A stretch of DNA of 64,000 bases from Nitrosopumilus sp. GTDB taxonomy: Archaea; Thermoproteota; Nitrososphaeria; Nitrososphaerales; Nitrosopumilaceae. The DNA is taken from assembly GCA_965197525.1 (NCBI GenBank), contig OZ240211.1:1152001-1216000 (forward strand). Reading direction: 5' to 3'. Of this stretch, positions 1 through 13,429 are shown piece by piece. Numbering within the stretch: the stretch's first letter is position 1; every line of letters starts with the position of its first letter. The position numbers were made by a program, and so were the translations under genes. The notes under the pieces are model-generated. The model was not told where the DNA came from and did no database searches. It saw nothing but the letters and a program-made list of their open reading frames with translations.

Positions 1-177
1 GGTCTTGAATATTGCAATGTATTCTGTGGCATTCTCCATCTTGCCATCCCAAGTATACAATGAAGAGATCTTGGAGATGTTAACACATGCTATTACCCTG
101 TCTGCCAAGAGTCTCTTTGCAATGGCGGTAACAGACCTTTTGCTAGGATAAGTAGAGATTATCATTACTGGTTTCAT
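1..177 (-). CDS. cutA: Divalent-cation tolerance protein CutA (3' part outside the window)
   Basis: Not in the ORF track. Manual translation from ATG at 177: MKPVMIISTYPSKRSVTAIAKRLLADRVIACVNISKISSLYTWDGKMENATEYIAIFKT, with the CutA ACVN...SLYxWxG..E motif. Runs off the window edge. Confidence 0.9.
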   Translation of the reverse strand, partial: MKPVMIISTYPSKRSVTAIAKRLLADRVIACVNISKISSLYTWDGKMENATEYIAIFKT

Positions 178-408
178 GTGTGTTATAGAATAGAGGATAT
201 TTTAAATGATCTTGTGTGTGTTCGTCTGGTAATAATCTGTAACAGTTTGTTTCTTTATATTGTGTTTAACAATAACTGTAAAACAGATCTCAGATGCTCC
301 GCTATGCTACTGTACTATTCATGATGGTGATATGTACCATGAATGTTGATGATGCGTTTGTTGCAGGTACATATGATCACATCTAACAAACTAGTGAGCA
401 AAAGATCA

Positions 409-1197
409 TTATTTTGCCATTTCTGTAATCACTCGTGAAATCTCATCTTGGTCAATACCTATTATATTGGAAACGGAACTGTAATCCGGACCTGTAAATT
501 TGGAAACTGTTAACAAGATTTTTTTGGAACCGCATATTTTCTGAACACGTTGTTTTAAATCTAGAAATTTTATACCAGAATACCACATAAGAGAATAGAT
601 ATCAGCAATATCCTTAATCCGCTTGTCTTCTTTGTTCCTGTTTAGAACAGAATTTATCTTCATCGAAACTAGTATTTCTGGGCGTGGAAGCATCACCTCT
701 TTTCCAAAGTATCCTGATAGAACAAATTGATTATCTGAAAAAACATTGGCAAGCAGGGGCTCATCAATTGGACTTAATCCGAATAGTATTTTTGCTCTTG
801 GATGTATTTTGTCAACGACTGGGTCGACAAACAGATCAAACATATCATATTTGGGACGTTTTTTGGATTCTTCTTCTGTTAAAAGCTGTCTAGTTTTAAG
901 ATCGTGGTGTTGCACAAAGCGTGATCCTATTCCATAATATTTCATATCTTTTAGAATCTCAATTGATTTGGAAAATGCCGATTTTTGTAATTGCTCATCA
1001 GACCAGGTATCATCCATGTGAAAGCCAAGATCTATATCTCTTGAACCAATGTAATCTCTTCTTTGTTCAGCTTTGAATCTTTGATTTACGGTAATGTAAA
1101 CTGCCCATCCACCCATCAAACATGCAGGTTCTTTGACGTTTGAAATAACAGTCGACATGTTTGATTTTGAAATTTCTACCTCATCTTCTGTGTACAA
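409..1197 (-). CDS. AbiEii/DUF1814-like nucleotidyltransferase (type IV TA toxin-like)
   Basis: 262 aa. Motifs GGWAV, GSRDIDL (NTase DxD) and C-terminal KxxxxxxR...RIKDIADI. Overlaps the upstream HTH gene by 17 bp. Confidence 0.7.
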   Translation of the reverse strand: MYTEDEVEISKSNMSTVISNVKEPACLMGGWAVYITVNQRFKAEQRRDYIGSRDIDLGFHMDDTWSDEQLQKSAFSKSIEILKDMKYYGIGSRFVQHHDLKTRQLLTEEESKKRPKYDMFDLFVDPVVDKIHPRAKILFGLSPIDEPLLANVFSDNQFVLSGYFGKEVMLPRPEILVSMKINSVLNRNKEDKRIKDIADIYSLMWYSGIKFLDLKQRVQKICGSKKILLTVSKFTGPDYSSVSNIIGIDQDEISRVITEMAK

Positions 1198-1792
1198 ATT
1201 GTTCTTCCGCCTTTTCTATTAGCATCTCTGATGCCTCTGCGCACGGTCCTCCCTCCATTAACAGATCCATTACTAGTTGTGGAATAGATACCGTCTTGAA
1301 TTCTTCTTTTTCTGCCAAGTTGTAAAAAACATGAGGATCCCCAATTAACACTCTGGTATTTCCTTTTCCTACAAGACCTTCATATGACAGAATGTTGTGC
1401 CATTTTACTTTGTCTTGTGGATCAATGTAAAAATCCACTCGGGATGGAAACAGATACTTTTGTGTCAGATTTTCTGCTACATATGTGGTAAGTGCATATT
1501 TTAGCTTTGAAGATTTGAGAAGCTCGAGAGGATTTTGTATCATGTATTCTTTCTTATCTGGAGCTATCCGGAGCGTTCTCCAAAGGGAGACTAGTTCTCT
1601 GTAGTTTATCACTCTGGTTTTTGTTATCAAATCGCGGTCTTCTAAGCGTTTAAGAAAATCATGAGTCCAAGAGTATGCTGCGTCTGCTAATTTTGCCACT
1701 CTGTATTTTGTAAGGTTGCCGCCGGGATTATCAAGCAATATTCTGATTATTCTCTCTTTTACAAATCCTCTCTTTTTAGGCATCTTCGTCAT
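1181..1792 (-). CDS. AbiEi-like winged-helix transcriptional regulator/antitoxin
   Basis: 203 aa. N-terminal HTH (LTKYRVAKLADAAYSWTHDFLKRL); C-terminal AbiEi-like VSIPQLVMDLL. Directly upstream of the NTase. Confidence 0.65.
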   Translation of the reverse strand: MTKMPKKRGFVKERIIRILLDNPGGNLTKYRVAKLADAAYSWTHDFLKRLEDRDLITKTRVINYRELVSLWRTLRIAPDKKEYMIQNPLELLKSSKLKYALTTYVAENLTQKYLFPSRVDFYIDPQDKVKWHNILSYEGLVGKGNTRVLIGDPHVFYNLAEKEEFKTVSIPQLVMDLLMEGGPCAEASEMLIEKAEEQFVHRR

Positions 1793-1793
1793 G

Positions 1794-1870
1794 TATATCG
1801 GTACATCTTAAATAATATAAGGATTACCGATATATCGGTAACTGGCTAAGTATTTAAGGCTAACCGATAG
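1794..1870. promoter_or_regulatory. Palindromic operator cluster upstream of the AbiE-like operon
   Basis: Perfect 18-bp palindrome TTACCGATATATCGGTAA at 1824-1841. Half-site TATATCGGTA at 1794-1803 next to the start codon, and TAACCGATA at 1861-1869. TTAAATA box on the minus strand. Confidence 0.7.
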
Positions 1871-1994
1871 TTTAGCATATGTTTGTCGCCAGATATGGAA
1901 ATTTTCTTTTCAGAGGATTCAGATAAATCATCAAAGAATTTTTAGTCATAAAACTGTGTCAAATTTTGCAGGATGTTTCTTATACATGGAATCT

Positions 1995-2166
1995 ACTTGT
2001 ATTTTGTAAAGTTGGCATCAGGATGATTCTCAAACGATACTCTGACTATTTTCTCTTACAAGTCCGTTTTTTCAGGTAGCGCCTGCATTACCACACACCA
2101 ATATGTCTCAAGTCCAAATTATCGATATATCGGTAACGAGCAATGTATTTGAGATGAACTGATACC
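1995..2166 (-). pseudogene. Decayed duplicate of the 5' end and promoter of the AbiEi-like gene
   Basis: Minus strand ~2077-1995 reads ..EKIVRVSFENHPDANFTKYK*, versus ERIIRILLDNPGGNLTKYR in the intact gene. A second operator copy TTATCGATATATCGGTAA (17/18 match) lies at 2119-2136 with a similar downstream ~27 bp. Confidence 0.7.
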
Positions 2167-2238
2167 TCTGATTATAGAAGAATTATTCGTTTACAGAAAC
2201 CGATAAATGACCTCTTTTTAAAAAAATAAAGAGTTAGT

Positions 2239-3435
2239 TTGGAACATAATTTTCTTACAGATAATCCGATAATCTACGTCTTGATTGCATGGGTAATAAC
2301 GGTGATTGCAGCCAAGGCGCTAAAGATAGAGAGATACGGTTTTGAGATTAAAGCATACAGTCTGGTATACAAGAATAGAGGAGTAAACACTGCACTAGTC
2401 AGAATGCTAGGCAGAACAAAACGAGGAATCAGGGTGTTTGCAGATACCAGTGTGATTGCAGGTTTTATAATGATGGGTTTTGCCTTTTGGTTTCTGCTAA
2501 ACAACATTGCGAACTTTTTTGTAGCAGAGACAGAGTTTGCAGAATTAACGGTGTTGATTCCGGGTGTAACGCTGACTTCGGCATCATCAATTATGTACTT
2601 TTTGCTGTCAATCCCAATCGTACTGGTTATTCACGAGGGTGCACACGGTATAGTGGCTGCACTAGAGAAGATAAAGATAAAGACGGGGGGCTTTGCGATA
2701 TTTATTGCAATGTTTGCGGGTTTTGTAGAACCTGACGAGGAGGAATTTGATAAAGCAAAAAAGATCTCAAAATTGCGGGTGATTGGAGCTGGCGCAACAT
2801 CAAATGTGCTGTTTGCATTTGCGCTAGGTGCCTTGCTGTTAACAAACCCGATTTTCGCAATAATACTGCCTGAGCCAATCCAAAGTACGTTTTATGACAT
2901 ACCTGACGGAGTGTTGGTACTCTCGATAATAGAGAACTCGGGAGCAGAACAAGCAGGATTGCTTGCAAATGACATCATTACGTCAATTAACGATATACCG
3001 ATTCGGAGTCCTGCGGATTTCCCCGTATTGAATCCGGGTGATGCTGCAAGTGTGGAGGTGATCAGGGATAGCCAAGAGTTGGAGTTTGGAGTGGAGATAA
3101 TGGCAGCACCTGACGACCCTGAGAGAGGGCTGATAGGCATCATGAGGGATAACACGTTTTCATACAAGCCGGTACTCGATTTCATTGAATGGAATGATCC
3201 GAACGTGTCGCTGTTTTTGCTGTGGCTGTGGATGATCTCATTTTTCATCGGAATAATCAACATGCTGCCACTGCCAATCCTGGATGGAGGAAAGTTCATT
3301 TACATCATTATTGAGAAAAAGATTTCAGAAAAGTCAGTAAACATGGTAATGTGGGGAATTTACGCATTTACATTTGTGGTGTTTGGCCTGAATATAGCGC
3401 TGTCGTATATTAAATCCGGATGGTTTACCATCTAG
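2239..3435 (+). CDS. Site-2 protease family (M50) membrane metalloprotease with PDZ domain
   Basis: HEGAH (HExxH) motif, C-terminal NMLPLPILDGG, PDZ-like segment, multiple TM helices. Confidence 0.95.
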   Translation: MEHNFLTDNPIIYVLIAWVITVIAAKALKIERYGFEIKAYSLVYKNRGVNTALVRMLGRTKRGIRVFADTSVIAGFIMMGFAFWFLLNNIANFFVAETEFAELTVLIPGVTLTSASSIMYFLLSIPIVLVIHEGAHGIVAALEKIKIKTGGFAIFIAMFAGFVEPDEEEFDKAKKISKLRVIGAGATSNVLFAFALGALLLTNPIFAIILPEPIQSTFYDIPDGVLVLSIIENSGAEQAGLLANDIITSINDIPIRSPADFPVLNPGDAASVEVIRDSQELEFGVEIMAAPDDPERGLIGIMRDNTFSYKPVLDFIEWNDPNVSLFLLWLWMISFFIGIINMLPLPILDGGKFIYIIIEKKISEKSVNMVMWGIYAFTFVVFGLNIALSYIKSGWFTI

Positions 3436-3549
3436 TAGGTCAATGAGATGCGATTCTTGTTTCATCACTGTGCATCCTTGGTTAATCTGCATCCACAAAA
3501 ACATGTAAGAATGATTATACACTGGTTATAGGTGAACCTGGACAGATAC

Positions 3550-3678
3550 CCATTTTTATTGACTGCAGGCAGGCAAGAGAATATAACATCAGATAAACTA
3601 GAGAAAAAACTTCAAGGGATACAGCAAAAATATCATGAACACGAGAAAAAAAAAGTCAATGGAATCATACCCGAAGAG
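3550..3678 (+). repeat. Direct repeat copy 1, within a possible 55-aa ORF at 3532-3699
   Basis: Aligns with high identity to 7654-7779. Translates PFLLTAGRQENITSDKLEKKLQGIQQKYHEHEKKKVNGIIPEE. Confidence 0.9.
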
Positions 3679-3892
3679 AGTGTGACTGTGAGCATTTAAA
3701 GTACAATTTGTCTAACATGTATACAGTTATTGTTGTATAATGTCATTTTGACTGAAAAATTTGCAAAATCCTGTCTAGTATGGCGTTAGTTATGATCATA
3801 CTGACTTGGTAATTTTGGGTTAGATGTCATGATTTAAACGACAAGATAATGCGAACAGCACAGTTTAACTAGTTTTTTATTTCATTTATCAT

Positions 3893-6800
3893 ATGGAACC
3901 TCAAATCACAGATCCAGTAAAGATCATACGTGATAGAATAAAAGAGTTTGAACCATATGAGATCTTGTCTTATGTTGCACTTTTAGATGCACTGCCTGGA
4001 AATGAGAACAAATTCGTGCGTTTGGAGACACTCTGCAAAGTGATCCTCTCGACTAGACAGAAAAAATTCAAAAATTTGGAATTTGGCAAAGATGACATAG
4101 CACAGTTGCTTGATGATTTGGATTCTTTTCATGATTGGAGTCCTCTTGAGGACGTTATTCCCGTGTCACTACTTGACCATCCCGGCGTCTGGCTTTTGGG
4201 GAGAAGATACCACATATTTACAGGCATCGAATACCGTTTTTCTGACTTTTGGAGGCAGTTGATCTCTGACATGTACCCTGTTCGTAAATCTTTTCATGCC
4301 AAGGGATATGACCCAATCCATATCATTGAGGATATACTGTCCCTTCAGTCAAGACTCGTATCTGTTATTTATGAGCACAAGGATTCAATATCGAAAATTG
4401 GAGATGTGAGCGTCCCGTCACCGGAGCTGTTCGAATCATGGAAACACACCATAAATCAATGGTATCAACAGACACCTCACCAGAGCTTCTATGCCCAACA
4501 CTCAGTATCCCTTGGACGAAAGATGGATCAATCACTTATTACCGAGCCGGACCTTTTAACTCCATCTACATTCTTCTCAGTTGATATAGCCGGCAGAACT
4601 GTTCTGATTTTTCAACGCGGTCTGCTGAATTGTTTGAGTGCTTTGTTTTTAGATGATTTTAAGAGCTTGCACCAACAGAATCCCTCATTACTGTATGATT
4701 CTTCTGATGTATTGTTACGACATTTATCAAAATTATTTCTGTCTGAGAATATTTTACCGCATTTTTCTGTAAATGATTTAGAAGAGGTTGTCGACTTTGC
4801 AACAATTTTTGATAGTAATAAACTGTTTTTGTTCAAGATTATTCATCCTGATTTTGCAGATGATTCAGACGAGCATCTAAAGGAATCAGTCAATAAACTT
4901 AAAAAAATTACTCGCTATGTCCCTATCGGCAAGACAAATTTCAAAACTTTTCAGACATCTGTAGAGGTATCTGAATCCATCCAGTATGAGACCATCTCTA
5001 TTTTATTGGTCAATTCACTTTATGATATGCCCCCGAAGACCGGCCTTAGGATTGATAGTGATACTTTTTTGATCATTCCGTTTCATGATTTTATTGCAAT
5101 CTGTAATGAAATCAAAGATGGAATGAAACTATTAAAATTTCTCAGATATTATCACGGCGCCAACAAGGAATTTTCCCCAGATGCCAGAATGTTAGATGTG
5201 TATACTGCTGTTTTTTGCGATGTTGATTCCTTTTTACCACCTGACTCACTGTTTGGGTATGAATATGTTTGGGATCAATATTATATGCATAAATTAAGAA
5301 CTACACCGAATTTTCAGCCAAGACTAGATGAGGACGAACCTGCAGATTTGTGGGATGCCAATCCCATCTCTGATAAGGTTTTTCAAATGTATGATGCCCA
5401 AGCACACAGGCTGGCCAGTGTTTTTAGGCTAAACGATGACAGAGCTGTTTGGATACTGCCCTCAAACACTGTTTTGGACTATCATCCAAATGAGTTACAC
5501 GCATTTAATCTTTTGATGCAGCTTGTCCCATTTCGTCTTACGTCCAGTAACACCTTTGAGACATTTTTGCAAAAGTGTGGCATGGATTCTGTTAACCAGA
5601 TGCGATTCGTGCTGTATCCTACCTCTTTTATCAAAAGACGGGGATTGCAGGATTATAACAAGTTTCTGCCTTTGGCAAGTAATGATGAAGGCCCGGTATT
5701 TGTGAGAGTAAATCATGTCCCCAATGCTGACAGACCAGTATTTGATATAATATTCTCTTTGAGTCATCTATCAAAATTATCTAAAAGTGACTATCTGAGT
5801 GCAGAAAAGGCTATCATCAGGTCAATACTCTCTGAGATATCAAGACAGTCGTTGCAGTTATCTGTAGATGAGATTGACAAGTTTACAGAAGAGATCTTTG
5901 AAGATGATTCATCTGACTTTAACATTACGCCGATGAATAATCAATCGTTGTTACTATCCACATTGACATCTGCAAACCATCCCAAAATACCAAGTGAGAA
6001 CATGTTTGATATTTATAATCAAATCCAGGAATGTGTCGCAGAACGTGCCATTATTGGGCCACAAAGCACGGAAGACGCCAGATACATTGTAGACGAGGTA
6101 ATTAATCACTTGGAGAGGTCGTTAATCGAAAAATTACACCAGTACTCCCTTGCCGATATTCTGTCATATGCTGTACGTGTTAATAGCACTCTGTATGAAT
6201 CCAGGTATATCACACAATACATATCCAAAGATGACTATGGGTATGAAGAATATAATATCAGTACACGGTACTATGACAAGGATTTGAAACTATCAGAACT
6301 ATCTGCTATGGTAAGGTATATTGCAGAACTTGCCATAAGGATTAATCCGCAGGGTGACTCTTTGCTGTCAGATGAACGGTGGCTTGAGATACAGGCTTAC
6401 TTTGGCGAGCTCGGATCTTATGTATTTGCACGAAATGCCATTGATCTCAAGCCGGATGGTTTTACACTGACAGTCGATCATGACCATACTGCCAGATGGG
6501 ATTCTAGTGACGATGGCATCAATGCTTTAATTGAGTATTCCAAACATTTTGATAATGATGTTCCCGTACTGCCAATAGAATCTACATCCACATTTGATTT
6601 GAATGGTATGTTTGATGATGTAAATCCGTCATTTCTTGATGAATTCGGCGTCTCTTTTGAAGATTTTTTAAAAGTTTTAGAATGTTGTGTGTCATTATCC
6701 CATGATAAATCCAAACACATAGTTATTGTAGACTATACCAGTTTGATCTTAGATATACAGTCAGTATCTGGCATGGATAAAGATGCTGTAACTTGCGGAT

Positions 6801-7543
6801 TGAAGCTGGCGTCACTTGCACACGGAGATTTAGTAGACACTAAGATTTATCCAATCGATATTAAAAATACCAAACTTCGTTCTTTGGTAAAACCGATTCC
6901 GGTATTTCAACGAGGCAAACAAAAGATGTGCGTGCTAAACTCCTTGAGTATTATTATCTCAAAACATCGCTGGTTTGAGGCTATGAGACAGGGGCATCTG
7001 CCATTTTTAATCAGTGGTAGTAGGCAAGAGAATGCAACGTCCGATAAATTGACAATGAAATTACAAGAGATGCAACAAGACGTTATCTCAGAGCATAAAA
7101 GAGAGATTAATGATATAATGAGACAGAAAACGGTTTATTGTCATTCTGATGCTGGCAGTACAAGCAAGGTCTTTTCACAAATTCCTGAGAATATTGTGGG
7201 CGTGATTGACAGCCTATCGATTCATCCTAGCTTAAAACAGGTGATACTAATTGAGGCAAAGCAGTTTTACTGGAATATGTCTTTAGATGAGATTAAAGAT
7301 GAGATGTTAGAGTATACTAGCGATGGTGGCTACATTGAGGTATTATCCCAAAAGATGCAGTATGTAAAAAAATACCTGAGTGCTATTCTCCGATATCACG
7401 GATTAGATTCTGGTGGTGGTGGTAAAGAGGATGAGGAGGATTGGCAGGTCAAGGGTTACTTTGTTACTACAAATGATGCATTTCCAGTTGTGATGCCGCC
7501 TAGAATCAACATTATTAATATTAGCAAGTTGGATGCTATCTAG
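3893..7543 (+). CDS. Large hypothetical protein with a C-terminal PD-(D/E)XK/NERD-like nuclease motif
   Basis: 1216-aa open frame with T-rich composition unlike the neighbouring core genes. C-terminal VGVIDSLSIHPSLKQVILIEAK fits D-x(n)-E-x-K. The rest is unrecognised. Confidence 0.6.
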   Translation: MEPQITDPVKIIRDRIKEFEPYEILSYVALLDALPGNENKFVRLETLCKVILSTRQKKFKNLEFGKDDIAQLLDDLDSFHDWSPLEDVIPVSLLDHPGVWLLGRRYHIFTGIEYRFSDFWRQLISDMYPVRKSFHAKGYDPIHIIEDILSLQSRLVSVIYEHKDSISKIGDVSVPSPELFESWKHTINQWYQQTPHQSFYAQHSVSLGRKMDQSLITEPDLLTPSTFFSVDIAGRTVLIFQRGLLNCLSALFLDDFKSLHQQNPSLLYDSSDVLLRHLSKLFLSENILPHFSVNDLEEVVDFATIFDSNKLFLFKIIHPDFADDSDEHLKESVNKLKKITRYVPIGKTNFKTFQTSVEVSESIQYETISILLVNSLYDMPPKTGLRIDSDTFLIIPFHDFIAICNEIKDGMKLLKFLRYYHGANKEFSPDARMLDVYTAVFCDVDSFLPPDSLFGYEYVWDQYYMHKLRTTPNFQPRLDEDEPADLWDANPISDKVFQMYDAQAHRLASVFRLNDDRAVWILPSNTVLDYHPNELHAFNLLMQLVPFRLTSSNTFETFLQKCGMDSVNQMRFVLYPTSFIKRRGLQDYNKFLPLASNDEGPVFVRVNHVPNADRPVFDIIFSLSHLSKLSKSDYLSAEKAIIRSILSEISRQSLQLSVDEIDKFTEEIFEDDSSDFNITPMNNQSLLLSTLTSANHPKIPSENMFDIYNQIQECVAERAIIGPQSTEDARYIVDEVINHLERSLIEKLHQYSLADILSYAVRVNSTLYESRYITQYISKDDYGYEEYNISTRYYDKDLKLSELSAMVRYIAELAIRINPQGDSLLSDERWLEIQAYFGELGSYVFARNAIDLKPDGFTLTVDHDHTARWDSSDDGINALIEYSKHFDNDVPVLPIESTSTFDLNGMFDDVNPSFLDEFGVSFEDFLKVLECCVSLSHDKSKHIVIVDYTSLILDIQSVSGMDKDAVTCGLKLASLAHGDLVDTKIYPIDIKNTKLRSLVKPIPVFQRGKQKMCVLNSLSIIISKHRWFEAMRQGHLPFLISGSRQENATSDKLTMKLQEMQQDVISEHKREINDIMRQKTVYCHSDAGSTSKVFSQIPENIVGVIDSLSIHPSLKQVILIEAKQFYWNMSLDEIKDEMLEYTSDGGYIEVLSQKMQYVKKYLSAILRYHGLDSGGGGKEDEEDWQVKGYFVTTNDAFPVVMPPRINIINISKLDAI

Positions 7544-7653
7544 AGTCGTTTCAAAATTAAACTAATAATTTAATGTCAAGTTTTGAGTTAAAAAGTGCTG
7601 TTTAGAGTATTTCAAAACGCCGCTGGCAGAATGATTTGATCAGAGGCAATCTA

Positions 7654-7779
7654 CCATTTTTATTGACTGCCGGCAAGCAAGAGAATACAACATCAGATAA
7701 ACTAGAGAAGAAACTTCAAGGGATACAACAAAAATATCATGAACATGAAAAATAAGTCAATGAGATAATGCCTGAAGAG
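7654..7779 (+). repeat. Direct repeat copy 2 (pseudogene-like fragment, 7609-7803)
   Basis: Translates SISKRRWQNDLIRGNLPFLLTAGKQENTTSDKLEKKLQGIQQKYHEHEK*VNEIMPEE. Homologous to copy 1 and to 6958-7120 inside the 1216-aa gene. Confidence 0.9.
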
Positions 7780-7973
7780 CTTGATTCTGGTCGTGTTGCC
7801 TAGAATCTCAGATCTAAAATATTTTGTCACTTGTCATGTGAGATGATAGTATGCCTTGTTTGTTGATCCATACTGTTGCTAGTGTGAGAGATTGGGATCA
7901 AAACCATCAGATAACAGAAAACCTCAAACATGGTACCTAAAGAATCATTAATGGAAAAAAACTGCATCATGGT

Positions 7974-8954
7974 ATGAAATGTCATAGATGCAGCAGTCAA
8001 GCAGCAGTATACACTAGGAAATACTCTGGGGAGTCATTGTGTTCTGCATGCTTTACAAAATCCATTGCAAAAAAGACTGCAAAGACCATATCAAAGTACA
8101 ACATGATAAAACACGATGACTTGGTTGCAGTTGCAGTTTCTGGAGGTAAGGACTCGCTGGTGCTGTTAACAGTGATCAACGAGATGGCAAAGAACCATCA
8201 CTTTGACATTATGGCAATTACGATTGACGAAGGTATACCGGGATACAGAGACGAAGCATTACACATAGTAGAAGAGTTTTGCAAGAAACTGAATGTAAAA
8301 CACAAGGTGTATTCATACAAGGACCTCTTTGAGATGACGCTAGATGAGGCATTAGACATCAGAGACGGACAGAAAAATACCATCACTATAAACGCAAAAG
8401 ACGGCGCAAGTGTATCTCCTCTGGCTAGAACGAGTACCACATCGTCCTGTTCCATATGCGGAACACTAAGACGGCGCGCAATAGACCATGCAGCAAGAGA
8501 CAACAATGCAAACGTCATTGCAACGGGACATAATCTAGATGATACGCTACAGACATTTGTAATTAATATGCTCTCAGGTGATACCACAAAGATAGGATGG
8601 ATGGACCCTGACACGTCTGCAAACACGATTAGAAAGATAAAGCCGTTCTGCGAGATATACGAGTCAGAGATTGTATTTTACGCATTTACAAACGACATAC
8701 CGTTCCAGTCAGAACCGTGTCCCCACATGAACGAGGGGATTAGGACTGAGATTCGTGAATTTCTAAATTCATTAGAGACAAAGCATACAGGAATAAAGAA
8801 CAGCTTTTATCAATCAGTGCTAAAGGTATCTGACTCTGTAAAAAAGGACAATAAAGATATAAAAACAAAGAGAAGATGCCAGAACTGCGGCAGCGAGTCC
8901 ACAGGCAAAACGTGCTCTGTATGCAACACGCTACTACAACTAAAAAAGAACTAA
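7974..8954 (+). CDS. tRNA 2-thiolation PP-loop ATPase (NcsA/Ctu1/TtuA, TIGR00269-like)
   Basis: N-terminal CxxC...CxxC, PP-loop SGGKDS, CSICGTLRR, TGHNLDD, C-terminal zinc finger. Confidence 0.92.
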   Translation: MKCHRCSSQAAVYTRKYSGESLCSACFTKSIAKKTAKTISKYNMIKHDDLVAVAVSGGKDSLVLLTVINEMAKNHHFDIMAITIDEGIPGYRDEALHIVEEFCKKLNVKHKVYSYKDLFEMTLDEALDIRDGQKNTITINAKDGASVSPLARTSTTSSCSICGTLRRRAIDHAARDNNANVIATGHNLDDTLQTFVINMLSGDTTKIGWMDPDTSANTIRKIKPFCEIYESEIVFYAFTNDIPFQSEPCPHMNEGIRTEIREFLNSLETKHTGIKNSFYQSVLKVSDSVKKDNKDIKTKRRCQNCGSESTGKTCSVCNTLLQLKKN

Positions 8955-9004
8955 AACCTAATGCAAATATAACAGATTTTTTCTACATACTATGGTAGTA
9001 GGTA

Positions 9005-9298
9005 GGATCAGGGTGCCAGCCGTGCCCTATTCTGAAACCGGCTATATGCAGAGATCAGCAACTGTTGGGTAAATCTCTAGATTGGTAATTCCCGCTTGGT
9101 GTGCGGAAATGAAATCACGCCGAGGCGGGTGGTTGCAAATCAAGAAATATCCGAAGGGATAGCTTCTAAGATTGAACCATTGAAAGTGATGAGGTCCGGG
9201 AGGGAGCAGTCATAAGGTGGGGCATCCACGCTTCCTCGTCTACGTGGCGGATCTTGTATGCCTTGAAAAGGGGCTATCAGCCTAGAGTGGAGCCAATG
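9005..9298 (+). ncRNA. ffs: Archaeal signal recognition particle (7S) RNA; ends approximate
   Basis: ~300-nt GC-richer intergenic stretch. Helix 6 TATCC-GAAG-GGATA at 9148-9161 and helix 8 signature GAGGTCC-GGGA-GGGAGCAG at ~9191-9209. Confidence 0.85.
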
Positions 9299-9396
9299 GA
9301 ACTACTACTATATCATATCATCTGTTTATTGTTATTATTATTGCTGTTGTTGTTGTTTGTATTACTATTTTTATAGACTATACCATAACAACATAC

Positions 9397-9723
9397 ATGA
9401 TAATCGCATCCTCGTCGGGAAACATGAGAACGTATCAAGATTTTAAAAGACATATTCCTAATGCGGTAAAACCACTGTTTGAGGATATACGGGACTATTG
9501 TCTTGCACTTGATGACAAGGTAGTCGAGAATGTCAGAATGCACAGAATCGTATTTTGCAAATCAATTACATTCAGATGGTTTCTAGATGTAGAACCGCAG
9601 CCAGACTGTGTCATCTTGAAGATTCAAAGGGACAGAAAAGAACCGATACAGACTGTCAGTATCAACAAGACGACACCAGACGTATTGCGCCAGATAAAAC
9701 AGGCGTTTAACTCTATACACTAG
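9397..9723 (+). CDS. Conserved hypothetical protein (DUF5655-like); start may be the Met at 9424
   Basis: 108-aa ORF in a gap between genes. The LFEDIRDYCLALDDKVVE...IVF pattern resembles DUF5655. Confidence 0.55.
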   Translation: MIIASSSGNMRTYQDFKRHIPNAVKPLFEDIRDYCLALDDKVVENVRMHRIVFCKSITFRWFLDVEPQPDCVILKIQRDRKEPIQTVSINKTTPDVLRQIKQAFNSIH

Positions 9724-10016
9724 TACGTAATTACAAAATCAGTATACACAAAGTCATCCGTGCATGGTACAACCTTGACATCATCTACTCGAGAACCTGC
9801 AGGTCCATGATGTGCCCACTCCACTACGGCATCGACGCTTGACTCGTCGCCTTGCAACAAGGCCTCAACTCTGCCGTCTGGAAGATTCTTCACCCATCCA
9901 AATATGCTGTGTCTCTCTGCAGTATTCTTCAGATTCAAACGAAAGTATACACCTTGAACCTTGCCAGTTACAAACACGTTAACACATTTTTTGGACATGA
10001 TAACAAAACAAGGCAA
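9720..10016 (-). CDS. acyP: Acylphosphatase
   Basis: GKVQGVYFR and GWVKNLPDGRVE signatures. Confidence 0.95.
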   Translation of the reverse strand: MPCFVIMSKKCVNVFVTGKVQGVYFRLNLKNTAERHSIFGWVKNLPDGRVEALLQGDESSVDAVVEWAHHGPAGSRVDDVKVVPCTDDFVYTDFVITY

Positions 10017-10044
10017 CTACTAGTTTATGAATTTTAATGGGTTG

Positions 10045-10779
10045 TTACCGTCTCTCTTTGATTCTGGCACGACCGGTCTTTCTTGCAGCAATGCTGCCTA
10101 CCTTTGCGCCAGGTGGTGCATCCCTTGATACTGTGGAGCTCTGTCCTACGTGCTGGTGTCTGCCACCACCGTGTGGATGAACATATGCTGCCTGTGCTAC
10201 ACCACGGACTATAGGGTACTTTTTGCCCTTTGCCTTGAAACTGCGCCATTTGTTGCCTGCGCTCATAAAGTGACGTTCTGATGCGCCGCCGCCTGCCAGA
10301 GTCCCTATCATTGCCCTATTCTTTGGATTCAGCGTAGTAAACTTGCCTGAAGGTAGTTTTACAGTTACACCATCATCGCCGTGTGAGAATATGGTGGCGT
10401 TTGTACCAGCTGACTTTACTATTGCGCCGCCATCACCGAAGTGTTTTTCGATGTTGCACACGATTGTGCCGTCAGGAATGTTTTGAACGCTGATGACGTT
10501 ACCCTGTTCAATCTTTGATTTTAATCCAAAATGTAACGATTGGCCAACCGTAGTTCCCAAAACTGCAGGGACATAAGAGACAGAACCGTCCTCAAATCTT
10601 ACTTTGGCTAGCGGTGCTTCCCTACCTCGCTCATGCACTAGATCGATTATTTCGCCTGCACGCTGCTCAGAGAGTGCAAATCGTGGATAATTGGCTTGTG
10701 AGCCTACTTTACCAGTAGATGTTGATCTAAACTGATTGCCTCCACGGCCACGTCTTCGAACTAGCGGTCTCTTACCCAA
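10045..10779 (-). CDS. rpl2: 50S ribosomal protein uL2
   Basis: (M)GKRPLVRRRGRG...VRGVAQAAYVHPHGGG...GSIAARKTGR. Start re-set to TTG at 10779 (244 aa); the track's extension to 11004 is not L2-like. Confidence 0.97.
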   Translation of the reverse strand: MGKRPLVRRRGRGGNQFRSTSTGKVGSQANYPRFALSEQRAGEIIDLVHERGREAPLAKVRFEDGSVSYVPAVLGTTVGQSLHFGLKSKIEQGNVISVQNIPDGTIVCNIEKHFGDGGAIVKSAGTNATIFSHGDDGVTVKLPSGKFTTLNPKNRAMIGTLAGGGASERHFMSAGNKWRSFKAKGKKYPIVRGVAQAAYVHPHGGGRHQHVGQSSTVSRDAPPGAKVGSIAARKTGRARIKERR

Positions 10780-11239
10780 GTTAGTAGTTTTGTAAAAGAC
10801 AGAGAATTTTAAGCTTGTGATACTAACTAACACTGCTACAGATATAGAAGATAGATGAATGCCGGTAAATGGTAAGTGAGCCCAAAGACTGCAAAAGATA
10901 CAGAGGCATGCATAAGAGATGTCAGTAGAAGAATAGTAACAAGAATGGATAATGACGATGATATGCCAGTGAGTAACGCAGAATACAGGATTTGATGCTA
11001 TCACGCCTGAGTGTCATTAATCATCATCGTTACCATCATCGTTAAAATAACAACTGATAACAGACACGCCTGTGTGTGTGCGAGCTAGTCAATAATGTCG
11101 AGATAAACAAACCATCCACGCATGCCGACTGCCACACCAGCTATTTACTGCGATAATTTTGTAAAATATCGACTGTAGGCGTGCAACACATCACAAGATT
11201 GCTACAAAGATATAAAAATTAGACACTGCATGATGTAGT

Positions 11240-13429
11240 ATGAGTCAAAGCGCTTTATCACTAAAAGTATTAGAAGCATACACAAGAGACGTAGGCAGAG
11301 GTGTAGCAAGAATTGATTATGATTCCATGGATACGCTAAATGCGTCAACTGGCGATGTAATTGAGATTAAAGGTAAGCGTAGAACAGTAGCTAAATGTCT
11401 TCCATTATACCCATCAGACGAGGGTAAAGGAATTATCAGAATAGACGGACTGGGTAGAAACAACTCGGGTATTGCAATAGGGGATACCATATCTGTCAGA
11501 AAGATAAAGGCAGCAGCAGCAGAAAAGGTAGTTGTTGCACCACTAGAGGCAATTCCTCCAATTGATGAAAGATATCTAGCTGATGCACTAGAGAGTGTTC
11601 CATTAATCAAAGGTGATAACGTAATGGTCCCATACTTTGGCGGACGTCTCACATTCCAGGTAATAGGTGTAACACCGGCAGCTGATGCAGTACTAGTTAC
11701 GCAAAAAACTGTATTCCACATTGCAGAGAAGGGTGAGACGCTGCGAGGAGTTCCTCAAGTGACATACGAGGATATTGGAGGAATATCAAATGAGATTAAA
11801 AAGGTAAGAGAGATGATAGAGCTGCCATTAAGACATCCAGAGATATTTGAGAAACTGGGTATTGAGGCGCCAAAAGGTGTATTGCTGTATGGTCCGCCAG
11901 GAACAGGCAAGACGTTGCTAGCTAAAGCCGTTGCAAACGAGAGCAATGCGCATTTTATCAGCATATCGGGTCCTGAGATTATGAGCAAGTTTTATGGTGA
12001 GAGTGAGGCAAGACTGCGTGAGATATTCAAAGAAGCCAGAGAAAAGGCACCATCAATAATATTTGTAGACGAGATCGACTCCATTGCGCCAAAACGAGAA
12101 GAGGTTACAGGAGAGGTCGAACGCCGTGTGGTCTCGCAGATGCTATCACTGATGGATGGTCTAGAGGCAAGAGGCAAAGTCATCGTCATATCTGCAACGA
12201 ACCGACCAAACGCAATAGACCCCGCACTAAGAAGACCAGGACGATTTGACAGAGAGATAGAGATCAAGGTACCTGACAAGAAAGGAAGAAAGGACATCCT
12301 GGCAATACACAGCAGGAACATGCCATTATCTGAAGATGTAAATATAGACAAGATATCAGCAGTAAGCCACGGATACGTCGGGGCGGATTTAGAGTATCTA
12401 TGTAAAGAGGCGGCAATGAAGTGTCTGAGAAGGCTGTTACCAGTATTGAATCTAGAAGAAGAGAAACTGCCACCAGAAACCCTAGACAAACTGATTGTAA
12501 ATCACGATGACTTTCAAAAGGCACTCATAGAGGTGACGCCATCTGGAATGAGAGAGGTGTTCATCGAAAACCCAGATGTGAAATGGGAAGATGTTGGAGG
12601 CCTAGAGGAGGTAAAAAGAGAGCTGCAAGAGGCAGTGGAGTGGCCAATGAAATACCCTGGCCTGTATGATAAACTGGGACACAATATGCCCAGAGGAATT
12701 TTGTTGCACGGACCTAGCGGTACGGGTAAGACGTTACTAGCAAAGGCTGTTGCCACCCAAAGTGAGGCAAACTTTGTATCAGTCAGAGGTCCTGAACTGC
12801 TATCAAAATGGGTCGGTGAGTCAGAGAGAGGCATCAGGGAGATATTCAAACGAGCACGCCAATCAGCACCATGTGTGGTATTCTTCGATGAGATCGACTC
12901 TATTGCGCCAGTTAGGGGTGCAGGTGGAGAGACTGCAGTTACTGAGCGTGTGGTATCACAACTACTAACTGAACTTGACGGAATGGAGAACATGCACGGT
13001 GTTATTGTGCTTGCAGCAACGAACAGGGCAGATATGATTGACCCTGCATTGTTACGACCAGGAAGATTTGACAAGATTATACAGATTCCACTGCCTGACA
13101 AAGAGAGCAGAAAGAGTATCGTCAAGATTAACGCTGAGAAGATACCAACAGTGACTGATGAGAGTGATCCAATGTGCGTCAATCTTGACAAGATTGCCGA
13201 ACTAACTGACGGATTGAGTGGTGCCGATACTGCATCAATTGCAAATACGGCAGTGTCGTTGGTCATTCACGAATTTTTGGACTCGCACCCTGATGTCAAG
13301 GATATAGAGAAGAAGAACAAAGATGAGGTAAAGGTGACTATGAAGCACTTTGAGGAAGCAGTCAAAAAGGTACGTGAGCAAAAGGACTTGAAACTAGGCG
13401 AGAAACTAGTAGCATCGTATTACAGATAG
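11240..13429 (+). CDS. cdc48: CDC48/VCP family AAA+ ATPase
   Basis: N domain plus two AAA modules ([16 protein letters not shown]; DEIDSI; ALRRPGRFD). Confidence 0.97.

Follow-up and report, generated by a model that had tools for sequence, protein, structure and literature searches.

How a large gene comes to stand between two copies of a piece that resembles one of its own segments is the question raised by a locus in a 64,000-nucleotide stretch of DNA from Nitrosopumilus sp. (GenBank assembly GCA_965197525.1, contig OZ240211.1, positions 1,152,001 to 1,216,000 of the forward strand; this whole stretch is referred to as the window, and positions are counted from its first letter). The gene (3893..7543, plus strand) encodes a protein of 1216 amino acids (aa) with a predicted C-terminal nuclease domain. 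It is bracketed by direct repeats at 3550..3678 and 7654..7779, both on the plus strand, which are similar to an internal segment of the gene (7001..7102, plus strand). An initial annotation, made from the letters alone, had described an orphan nuclease gene and had proposed that the repeats are relics of a lost paralogue array or recombination handles, and also that the upstream copy encodes a regulatory peptide. The explanation considered likely here is that the gene, located in a variable hotspot, belongs to the Upx family of single-protein antiviral nucleases as a divergent archaeal representative, and that the repeats are non-functional relics of Upx paralogues that have been lost or replaced.

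Upx is a single-protein system in which a C-terminal PD-(D/E)xK nuclease is required for defense, while the large N-terminal part recognizes the ATPase domain of phage large terminases; its occurrence spans bacterial and archaeal phyla (PMC13099982 and PMC13601566). Protection against viruses and activation by the terminase ATPase domain have been shown there for bacterial homologues. A structure determined by cryo-electron microscopy is deposited as 9WUF (PMC13099982). According to that report, the catalytic residues of SeUpx are D1161/E1176/K1178, and the protein has an atypical N-terminal nuclease pocket formed by D122, D127-x-R129, E147, and D173.

Membership of the resident protein in this family was approached with profiles of increasing breadth. 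A word-indexed search returned only nine homologues, 33-48 % identical and all from metagenome assemblies. In the ESM Atlas, 30 of the 30 listed clusters fell in a set whose family is PF28173 "Upx-like" (score 0.98), and this family was carried by 31-59 % of the members in the three clusters shown; both observations served as leads only. Using a profile of five family members (A4) against 1.84 billion representatives, 637 matches were obtained at E ≤ 1e-3; of these, 232 remained at a cut-off of 1e-10 and 74 at one of 1e-30. Most of the matched proteins measure 1200-1290 aa. The PADLOC Upx model PDLC02221 was matched collinearly by 3 of 20 of those representatives (E 3.7e-5 to 3.4e-4). A broad profile (A5), built from a 92-row alignment with the resident protein as its first row, matched one PDB sequence, 9wuf_A (1272 aa), with an E value of 9.6e-54. 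The match was end to end and ran from positions 10-1224 of the profile against 40-1255 of the structure. Upx (9wuf) was not reached in PDB sequence searches with the single sequence or with a 10-row profile.

The same family was found through the predicted structure. An AlphaFold2 model of residues 17-1216, calculated from the 92-row alignment, had a pLDDT of 88.0 and a pTM of 0.87; it was used in place of a poor model from a 9-row alignment (pLDDT 56.2), which was discarded. Upon comparing it with the PDB using Foldseek, 9wuf was found with an E value of 6e-29, a probability of 1.00, and TM-scores of 0.63/0.62. It was the sole match with E ≤ 0.001 among the 500 listed (60,000 candidates aligned), the next having an E value of 0.083. 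Across the 92-row alignment, G1103, D1106, and K1123 hardly vary; in its 1200-residue numbering, D1106 and K1123 are D1090 and K1107. Position 1121 is a glutamate in seven of the nine rows covering it in the 10-row subfamily alignment, a glutamine in P0002, and an aspartate in P0005. In the model, D1106 and E1121-x-K1123 lie on consecutive strands (model residues 1089-1095 and 1100-1107). The alignment and the model thus point to D1106, E1121, and K1123 as the predicted PD-(D/E)xK catalytic residues, the codons of which lie at 7208..7261 on the plus strand.

The resemblance to the Salmonella enterica Upx (9WUF) extends over the whole protein. Both are single polypeptides of about 1200-1270 aa with the same predicted overall fold, and in the C-terminal PD-(D/E)xK core of each, the aspartate is located on strand 2 and the ExK motif on strand 3. 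The spacing between the aspartate and the glutamate is 15 residues in both, and the lysine is followed by 93 residues up to the C-terminus in the resident protein and by 94 in that of S. enterica. The two proteins differ in that their identity in the structural alignment is just 12 % and in that the resident protein has only the nine metagenomic sequences as close homologues and belongs to an ammonia-oxidizing archaeon, as deduced from the archaeal AmoA that the genome encodes.

When the resident gene was compared with eight homologues in 100-residue windows, no break in identity was seen at residue 1015, which gives no sign of a mosaic structure. The product is one large polypeptide without an evident partner, the insert in which the gene lies having no other open reading frame (ORF) of more than 90 codons. 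On the strength of the profile, the 9wuf match, and the Foldseek result, the gene is a divergent but full-length archaeal Upx with a putative role in defense, and the label "orphan" has been abandoned. The family was found in 1 of 41 genomes among the relatives and in 1 of 401 sampled across the phylum, in both cases the genome under study itself. Pattern scans with the family alignments detected no locus of a relative in collections of genomes, metagenomes, or viral contigs.

The direct repeats were confirmed with the limits originally given for them. Local alignment placed them at 3550-3678 (129 nucleotides, nt) and 7654-7779 (126 nt) with a score of 97, as compared to a maximum of 18 in 100 shuffles, and revealed no further similarity between the two intergenic regions outside this pair. 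A repeat finder split the pair into 3550-3651 versus 7654-7755, with 92 % identity, and a second stretch, 3647-3678 versus 7748-7779, with 81 % identity. The copies differ by 12 substitutions and one in-frame gap of 3 nt; their identity is about 88-92 %, varying with the stretch considered and the treatment of the gap, and the longest run of identity is 21 nt. The segment at 7001-7102 within the gene has 64 % nucleotide identity to 3550-3651, and the flanking copies are therefore closer to each other than to the internal one, as had been noted. Both flanks are nonetheless significantly related to the gene at the DNA level: the upstream repeat aligned to 6901-7200 with a score of 33 (mean 10.5 and maximum 16 in 200 shuffles) and the downstream fragment to the internal segment with a score of 59 (mean 10.7 and maximum 14 in 200 shuffles).

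The protein comparisons agree with this. Using tblastn with the resident gene on its own 2.21-Mb genome, only the gene itself and the two flanking pieces were found. The downstream piece (7588-7836) corresponds to residues 1015-1098 with 40 % identity (E 2.1e-11) and three stops, and the upstream piece (3538-3684) to residues 1033-1081 with 43 % identity (E 6.7e-6) and no stop. A hidden Markov model (HMM) of the family, run over the six-frame pieces of the genome, detected the two flanks with E values of 3.5e-9 and 3.1e-7. Neither tblastn nor the HMM, of which the next-best piece had an E value of 0.18, revealed any other copy or fragment of the family in the 2.21 Mb. The repeat translations quoted in the initial annotation are correct, as is the description of an uninterrupted upstream frame of 55 codons and of a downstream copy with a stop.

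The two flanking pieces differ in extent. The downstream pseudogene relic (7588..7836, plus strand) is equivalent to residues 1015-1098, consists of 84 codons with two TAG and one TAA stop, and starts 45 nt past the stop codon of the resident gene. The downstream repeat is nested in it, and its similarity to the family continues beyond the repeat in either direction. By contrast, the upstream copy, a 43-codon relic, matches residues 1033-1081 only, and both its ends are sharp, running abruptly into sequence unlike anything else at the locus. When compared to the resident protein, 32 of 80 and 22 of 55 residues of the flanking pieces are identical, and the pieces are less similar to each of eight other family members than to the resident. 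At an identity of about 40 %, the resident gene is not the source from which the pieces were copied; judged from their sequences, the relics belong to a different lineage of the same Upx-like family.

The repeat spans the linker and the first helix of the PD-(D/E)xK core, including a conserved His/Glu position. In the AlphaFold2 model, residues 1017-1034 (1033-1050 of the full-length protein) form a low-confidence loop, and residues 1035-1063 (1051-1079) form a long helix leading into the first strand of the nuclease core. The proposal that the repeat encodes a helix just before the nuclease domain had thus essentially picked the right helix; in the model, this helix is the first one of the core itself.

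The differences between the two repeats bear on how they arose. Of the 12 substitutions, 8 affect the third position of a codon (binomial P = 0.019); among the 11 codons that changed, 6 still specify the same amino acid, and the indel preserves the reading frame. This pattern suggests that the copies diverged while they were still coding, either as tandem paralogues or as alleles in different strains, and the third-position bias together with the in-frame indel counts against a duplication of DNA that was already dead.

The gene and its flanking relics occupy a site that varies among the relatives. The insert as a whole (3436..7933) extends from the stop codon of a gene for an M50 site-2 protease with a PDZ domain (2239..3435, plus strand; Pfam PF02163, E 2.5e-22) to conserved sequence just upstream of a gene for a TtuA-like PP-loop tRNA thiolase (7974..8954, plus strand; Pfam PF01171, E 8.7e-21). 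Both are core genes that are syntenic in the relatives. The order cutA, M50 protease, TtuA, a small ORF, acylphosphatase, ribosomal protein L2, and Cdc48 was seen in the 18 kb inspected in five congeners, and in all five a conserved stretch of 23-25 nt (7934-7961) just upstream of TtuA marks the right edge of the insert. The distance between M50 and TtuA is 44-56 nt in two of these congeners and 2.1, 4.5, and 5.5 kb in the remaining three. A wider count started from 29 TtuA loci of congeners, of which four were uninformative and 25, with at least 1.1 kb of upstream DNA, were used. M50 lies within 77 nt of TtuA in 17 of the 25 loci, which count as empty, and at 670 nt in one; in the remaining seven, it is not within 1.1-1.5 kb, and at least 1.1 kb of other DNA is present. 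The cargo of the inserts that were inspected consists of an acyl-carrier (ACP)/FkbH-like cluster, a pair of genes for a winged-helix and an AbiEii-like protein, and 2.1 kb without long ORFs. The GC content of the Upx-like gene is 0.36-0.41 and that of the flanking core genes 0.42-0.47. The M50-TtuA gap is a variable hotspot, differing in presence and absence of an insert and in cargo among relatives; exchange presumably takes place by homologous recombination in the flanking genes.

Variation is also seen between close strains. Variants of the Upx-like protein were found with two changes and a different start (P0167) and with 27 changes (P0168), and variants of TtuA with 6-8 changes. The orthologue P0168, the TtuA variant P0172, and a paralogue that is 44 % identical to the resident (P0004) each report a longest contig of 101,259 bp, and the three are almost certainly located on one and the same contig. 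A close strain therefore appears to carry, in addition to the orthologue, a second intact Upx-like gene that is absent from the genome studied here. Close family members are often frameshifted or split in the metagenome assemblies (P0010, P0024, P0109, P0158, P0160, P0161, and P0165). The cluster of P0003 includes members of 84-611 aa, and P0024 has an out-of-frame N-terminus followed by a near-exact copy of the C-terminus of P0003. Such broken members are the result either of frequent gene decay or of assembly errors.

From these observations the following course of events is proposed, the simplest one compatible with all boundaries. In the resident protein, the large N-terminal and middle part would serve as the sensor of a viral protein, with the C-terminal PD-(D/E)xK nuclease as the effector, by analogy with the characterized Upx. 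The repeats would be what is left, without function, of one or two additional Upx-like genes that belonged to another lineage and formerly occupied the hotspot; two related copies, as tandem paralogues or successive alleles, would have diverged while coding. The present gene would have come to lie between a copy cut after about residue 1081 and a copy cut before about residue 1015, and a later deletion would have removed the 5' part of the first copy up to residue 1033. Between the two origins offered in the initial annotation, relics of a lost paralogue array and recombination handles, the former is favored because the flanks are pseudogene pieces of a different lineage and because a second paralogue is present in a close strain. 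The repeat structure is probably evolutionary debris, for which a new mechanism is unnecessary.

Several points weigh against this reading. The sequence link to Upx is transitive, and the role in defense is a putative one. Direct scans of the 1216-aa protein gave no Pfam family, no PADLOC model at E ≤ 0.1, and a chance-level match only in NCBIfam (E 0.069), so that neither the PADLOC Upx model PDLC02221 nor the local Pfam library, a copy of which PF28173 was not part, matches the resident protein directly. The third-position bias rests on 12 sites only. No full-length gene of the relics' lineage was found; comparing the 55-aa upstream peptide with longer proteins gave nothing, which is weak evidence. 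The occurrence of the same short segment as a relic on both sides of the gene requires at least three events. Finally, the upstream frame is open in two strains (see below), which would not be expected if its history had been purely neutral.

Fewer ancestral genes are needed if a single earlier Upx-like gene received the resident gene as an insert, repair or replication having duplicated about 130-200 bp of the target, and later lost its own 5' part. The repeats would then be one relic that was duplicated on the spot and not two copies that had once been independent. Such an insertion explains why the same segment is found on both flanks, and it fits with the downstream relic beginning 45 nt past the resident stop codon and with the upstream repeat ending abruptly at unrelated sequence. 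The two copies would have been dead from the moment of insertion, however, and should have diverged regardless of codon position, whereas the third-position excess and the in-frame indel described above are mildly at variance with this expectation; the insertion is regarded as unlikely. A further history, which is given only a slim chance, is that Upx alleles replaced one another in series at a single hotspot and that breakpoints recurred at the junction of sensor body and nuclease core, where the linker and first-helix segment would be a preferred joint for module swapping. The 4.1-kb cassette could still excise as a circle and move between strains, and the 55-codon piece might be a helix mimic tuning the nuclease.

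Slightly less probable still is that the repeats are working handles, recombination between which excises or amplifies the 4.1-kb cassette, and that a circle with one repeat could re-enter genomes holding a copy. The direct repeats do enclose the entire gene plus its upstream region, the site is a hotspot with changing cargo, and a single crossover of a circle would yield exactly this geometry. At about 88-92 % identity, however, the repeats share no identical run longer than the 21 nt mentioned above. The region was present in three sequencing runs (two samples, one study), and contigs from both samples span M50, the upstream repeat, and the gene as well as the gene, the downstream relic, and TtuA, thus bridging both repeats into their flanks. 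No excision joint at the repeats was present in the contigs of these runs, a type of data in which rare excised forms would not show. The single joint seen nearby, from 3299 to 8631, lies inside both core genes and is covered about 20-fold more deeply; its source is an abundant relative in which the gap is unoccupied or differently occupied. The M50-TtuA loci of five relatives, empty sites included, lack a copy of the repeat. The proposal of handles for excision or amplification found no support from identity, contig joints, or empty sites. An integrative element bounded by attachment-site repeats was rejected: the insert (3436-7933) has no ORF of recombinase size, a tRNA gene is lacking from 1-12000, the repeats come from the cargo family and not from M50 or TtuA, and no repeat is present at the loci of the relatives.

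The least probable of the alternatives is that the 55-codon frame around the upstream relic (3532..3699, plus strand; GTG start, TAA at 3699) is expressed and that its product, which copies the first helix, modulates the nuclease of Upx, either by inhibiting it or by serving as a decoy. The frame is open here and, with the change G29E, in a second assembly, where it lies on a contig of 49.7 kb. It is located directly upstream of the gene on the same strand, and it covers the helix bearing the conserved His/Glu of the nuclease core. Among 5.8 billion clustered proteins, however, no homologue of 30-97 aa or longer was detected besides the ORF itself and its G29E variant. The divergence between strains is 1 of 55 residues in the ORF, as against 27 of 1216 in the Upx-like protein (P0168) and 6-8 of 326 in TtuA; the ORF thus diverges at the rate of the neighboring genes and there is no sign of special constraint. 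The start codon is GTG, inspection by eye of 3436-3531 suggested no evident archaeal promoter, and no such partner was seen among the called proteins of nine other family members. Co-folding of the nuclease domain (residues 985-1216) with the 55-aa peptide gave a score of 0.00 (mark 0.32) and speaks neither for nor against binding. With homologues confined to a one-residue strain variant, the idea of a regulator or antitoxin found no support. The frame is a candidate only, not a demonstrated gene, and is probably open because the relic is recent.

Farther downstream in the same intergenic region, a stretch of 31-36 nt at 3725-3760, upstream of the gene, matches part of a 580-790-bp repeat (86-90 % identity, E 1e-4). 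The genome has five copies of this repeat (C1 near 390359, 498805, 864311, 1860920, and 2084810), and the copy that was inspected (near 1860796) just precedes sequence with long internal tandem repeats. From sequence similarity, the stretch may be a shared promoter or leader element, or the match may be due to chance. Loose ends of contigs at 3725/3760 were considered as a structural variant and rejected; they represent other genomic copies of this five-copy repeat.

In the genomic neighborhood, a winged-helix protein (203 aa) and an AbiEii-like nucleotidyltransferase (262 aa) are encoded on the minus strand at 409-1792, between cutA and M50, by genes overlapping by 17 nt. The matches of the nucleotidyltransferase to Pfam (E 0.0061) and PADLOC (E 0.00084) are both under the curated cut-offs. 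Homologues of this pair (45-51 % identity) are located in the M50-TtuA gap of the relative G017 (L034 8006-10202), in which the second gene encodes 536 aa. Three copies of a 47-nt repeat with the palindrome TTACCGATATATCGGTAA are present upstream of the winged-helix gene (1786-1869 and 2118-2164) and look like operator sites for autoregulation of the pair. The cutA-M50 gap is a second variable spot: in the relative G018 it measures 4.7 kb and contains an ORF with a Cas12f1-like TNB domain (E 3.6e-14, TnpB-like; L038 9429-10190) and an inositol monophosphatase gene. On the other side of the insert, TtuA (7974-8954) is 326 aa long, compared to about 310 aa in most congeners, and its match splits around residues 135-155 in many relatives, which suggests that it carries an insertion of about 16 residues. 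The gene is directly followed by an archaeal signal recognition particle (SRP) RNA gene at 8996-9307 (99 bits, E 6.5e-22), the sole Rfam match, to which the very high metagenomic depth after TtuA is attributed. A low-complexity run at 9321-9370 follows the SRP RNA gene.

The locus can be compared to other systems in which pieces of a gene accompany an intact one. In Rhs/CdiA polymorphic toxin genes, displaced "orphan" C-terminal modules are located downstream of the intact gene. The downstream relic is similar in that a piece of another allele, starting near the effector boundary, comes immediately after the gene and shares its strand. It differs in that the piece has only 84 codons, contains three stops, and lacks the catalytic strands, that no immunity-type partner and no further ORF are present before TtuA, and that a second copy is found upstream of the gene, which is not predicted by that model. 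A displaced orphan C-terminal module with a cognate protective gene was rejected on these grounds, the piece covering residues 1015-1098 only. Like other variable defense hotspots between core genes, the M50-TtuA gap is flanked by a core pair that adjoins in most relatives and encloses unrelated cargo in others; it differs from them in lacking an integrase, a tRNA gene, or a conserved attachment repeat at its boundaries. A further parallel comes from Upx itself. Association with a second Upx is a recurrent arrangement according to the legend of one figure (PMC13601566, Fig. 4a), and here too more than one Upx-like gene is or was present at or near one locus, with the difference that the extra copies have been reduced to relics of 43 and 84 codons.

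Because Upx is known across bacterial and archaeal phyla, an archaeal Upx is not new in kind, and the gene is a new divergent archaeal member of a known family, not a new kind of system. It provides a name and a testable function for a large gene that is left blank by Pfam, NCBIfam, and PADLOC. Its host belongs to the ammonia-oxidizing archaea, which are important in the nitrogen cycle and of which the antiviral systems have been little studied. If the protein works like the bacterial Upx proteins, these archaea would detect head-tailed viruses via their terminase. In combination, the relics, the differing contents of the M50-TtuA gap, and the additional paralogue of a close strain show on a small scale how quickly defense genes turn over within one archaeal species, and the locus may be of use both for annotation and as a small case study of defense-gene flux in ammonia-oxidizing archaea.

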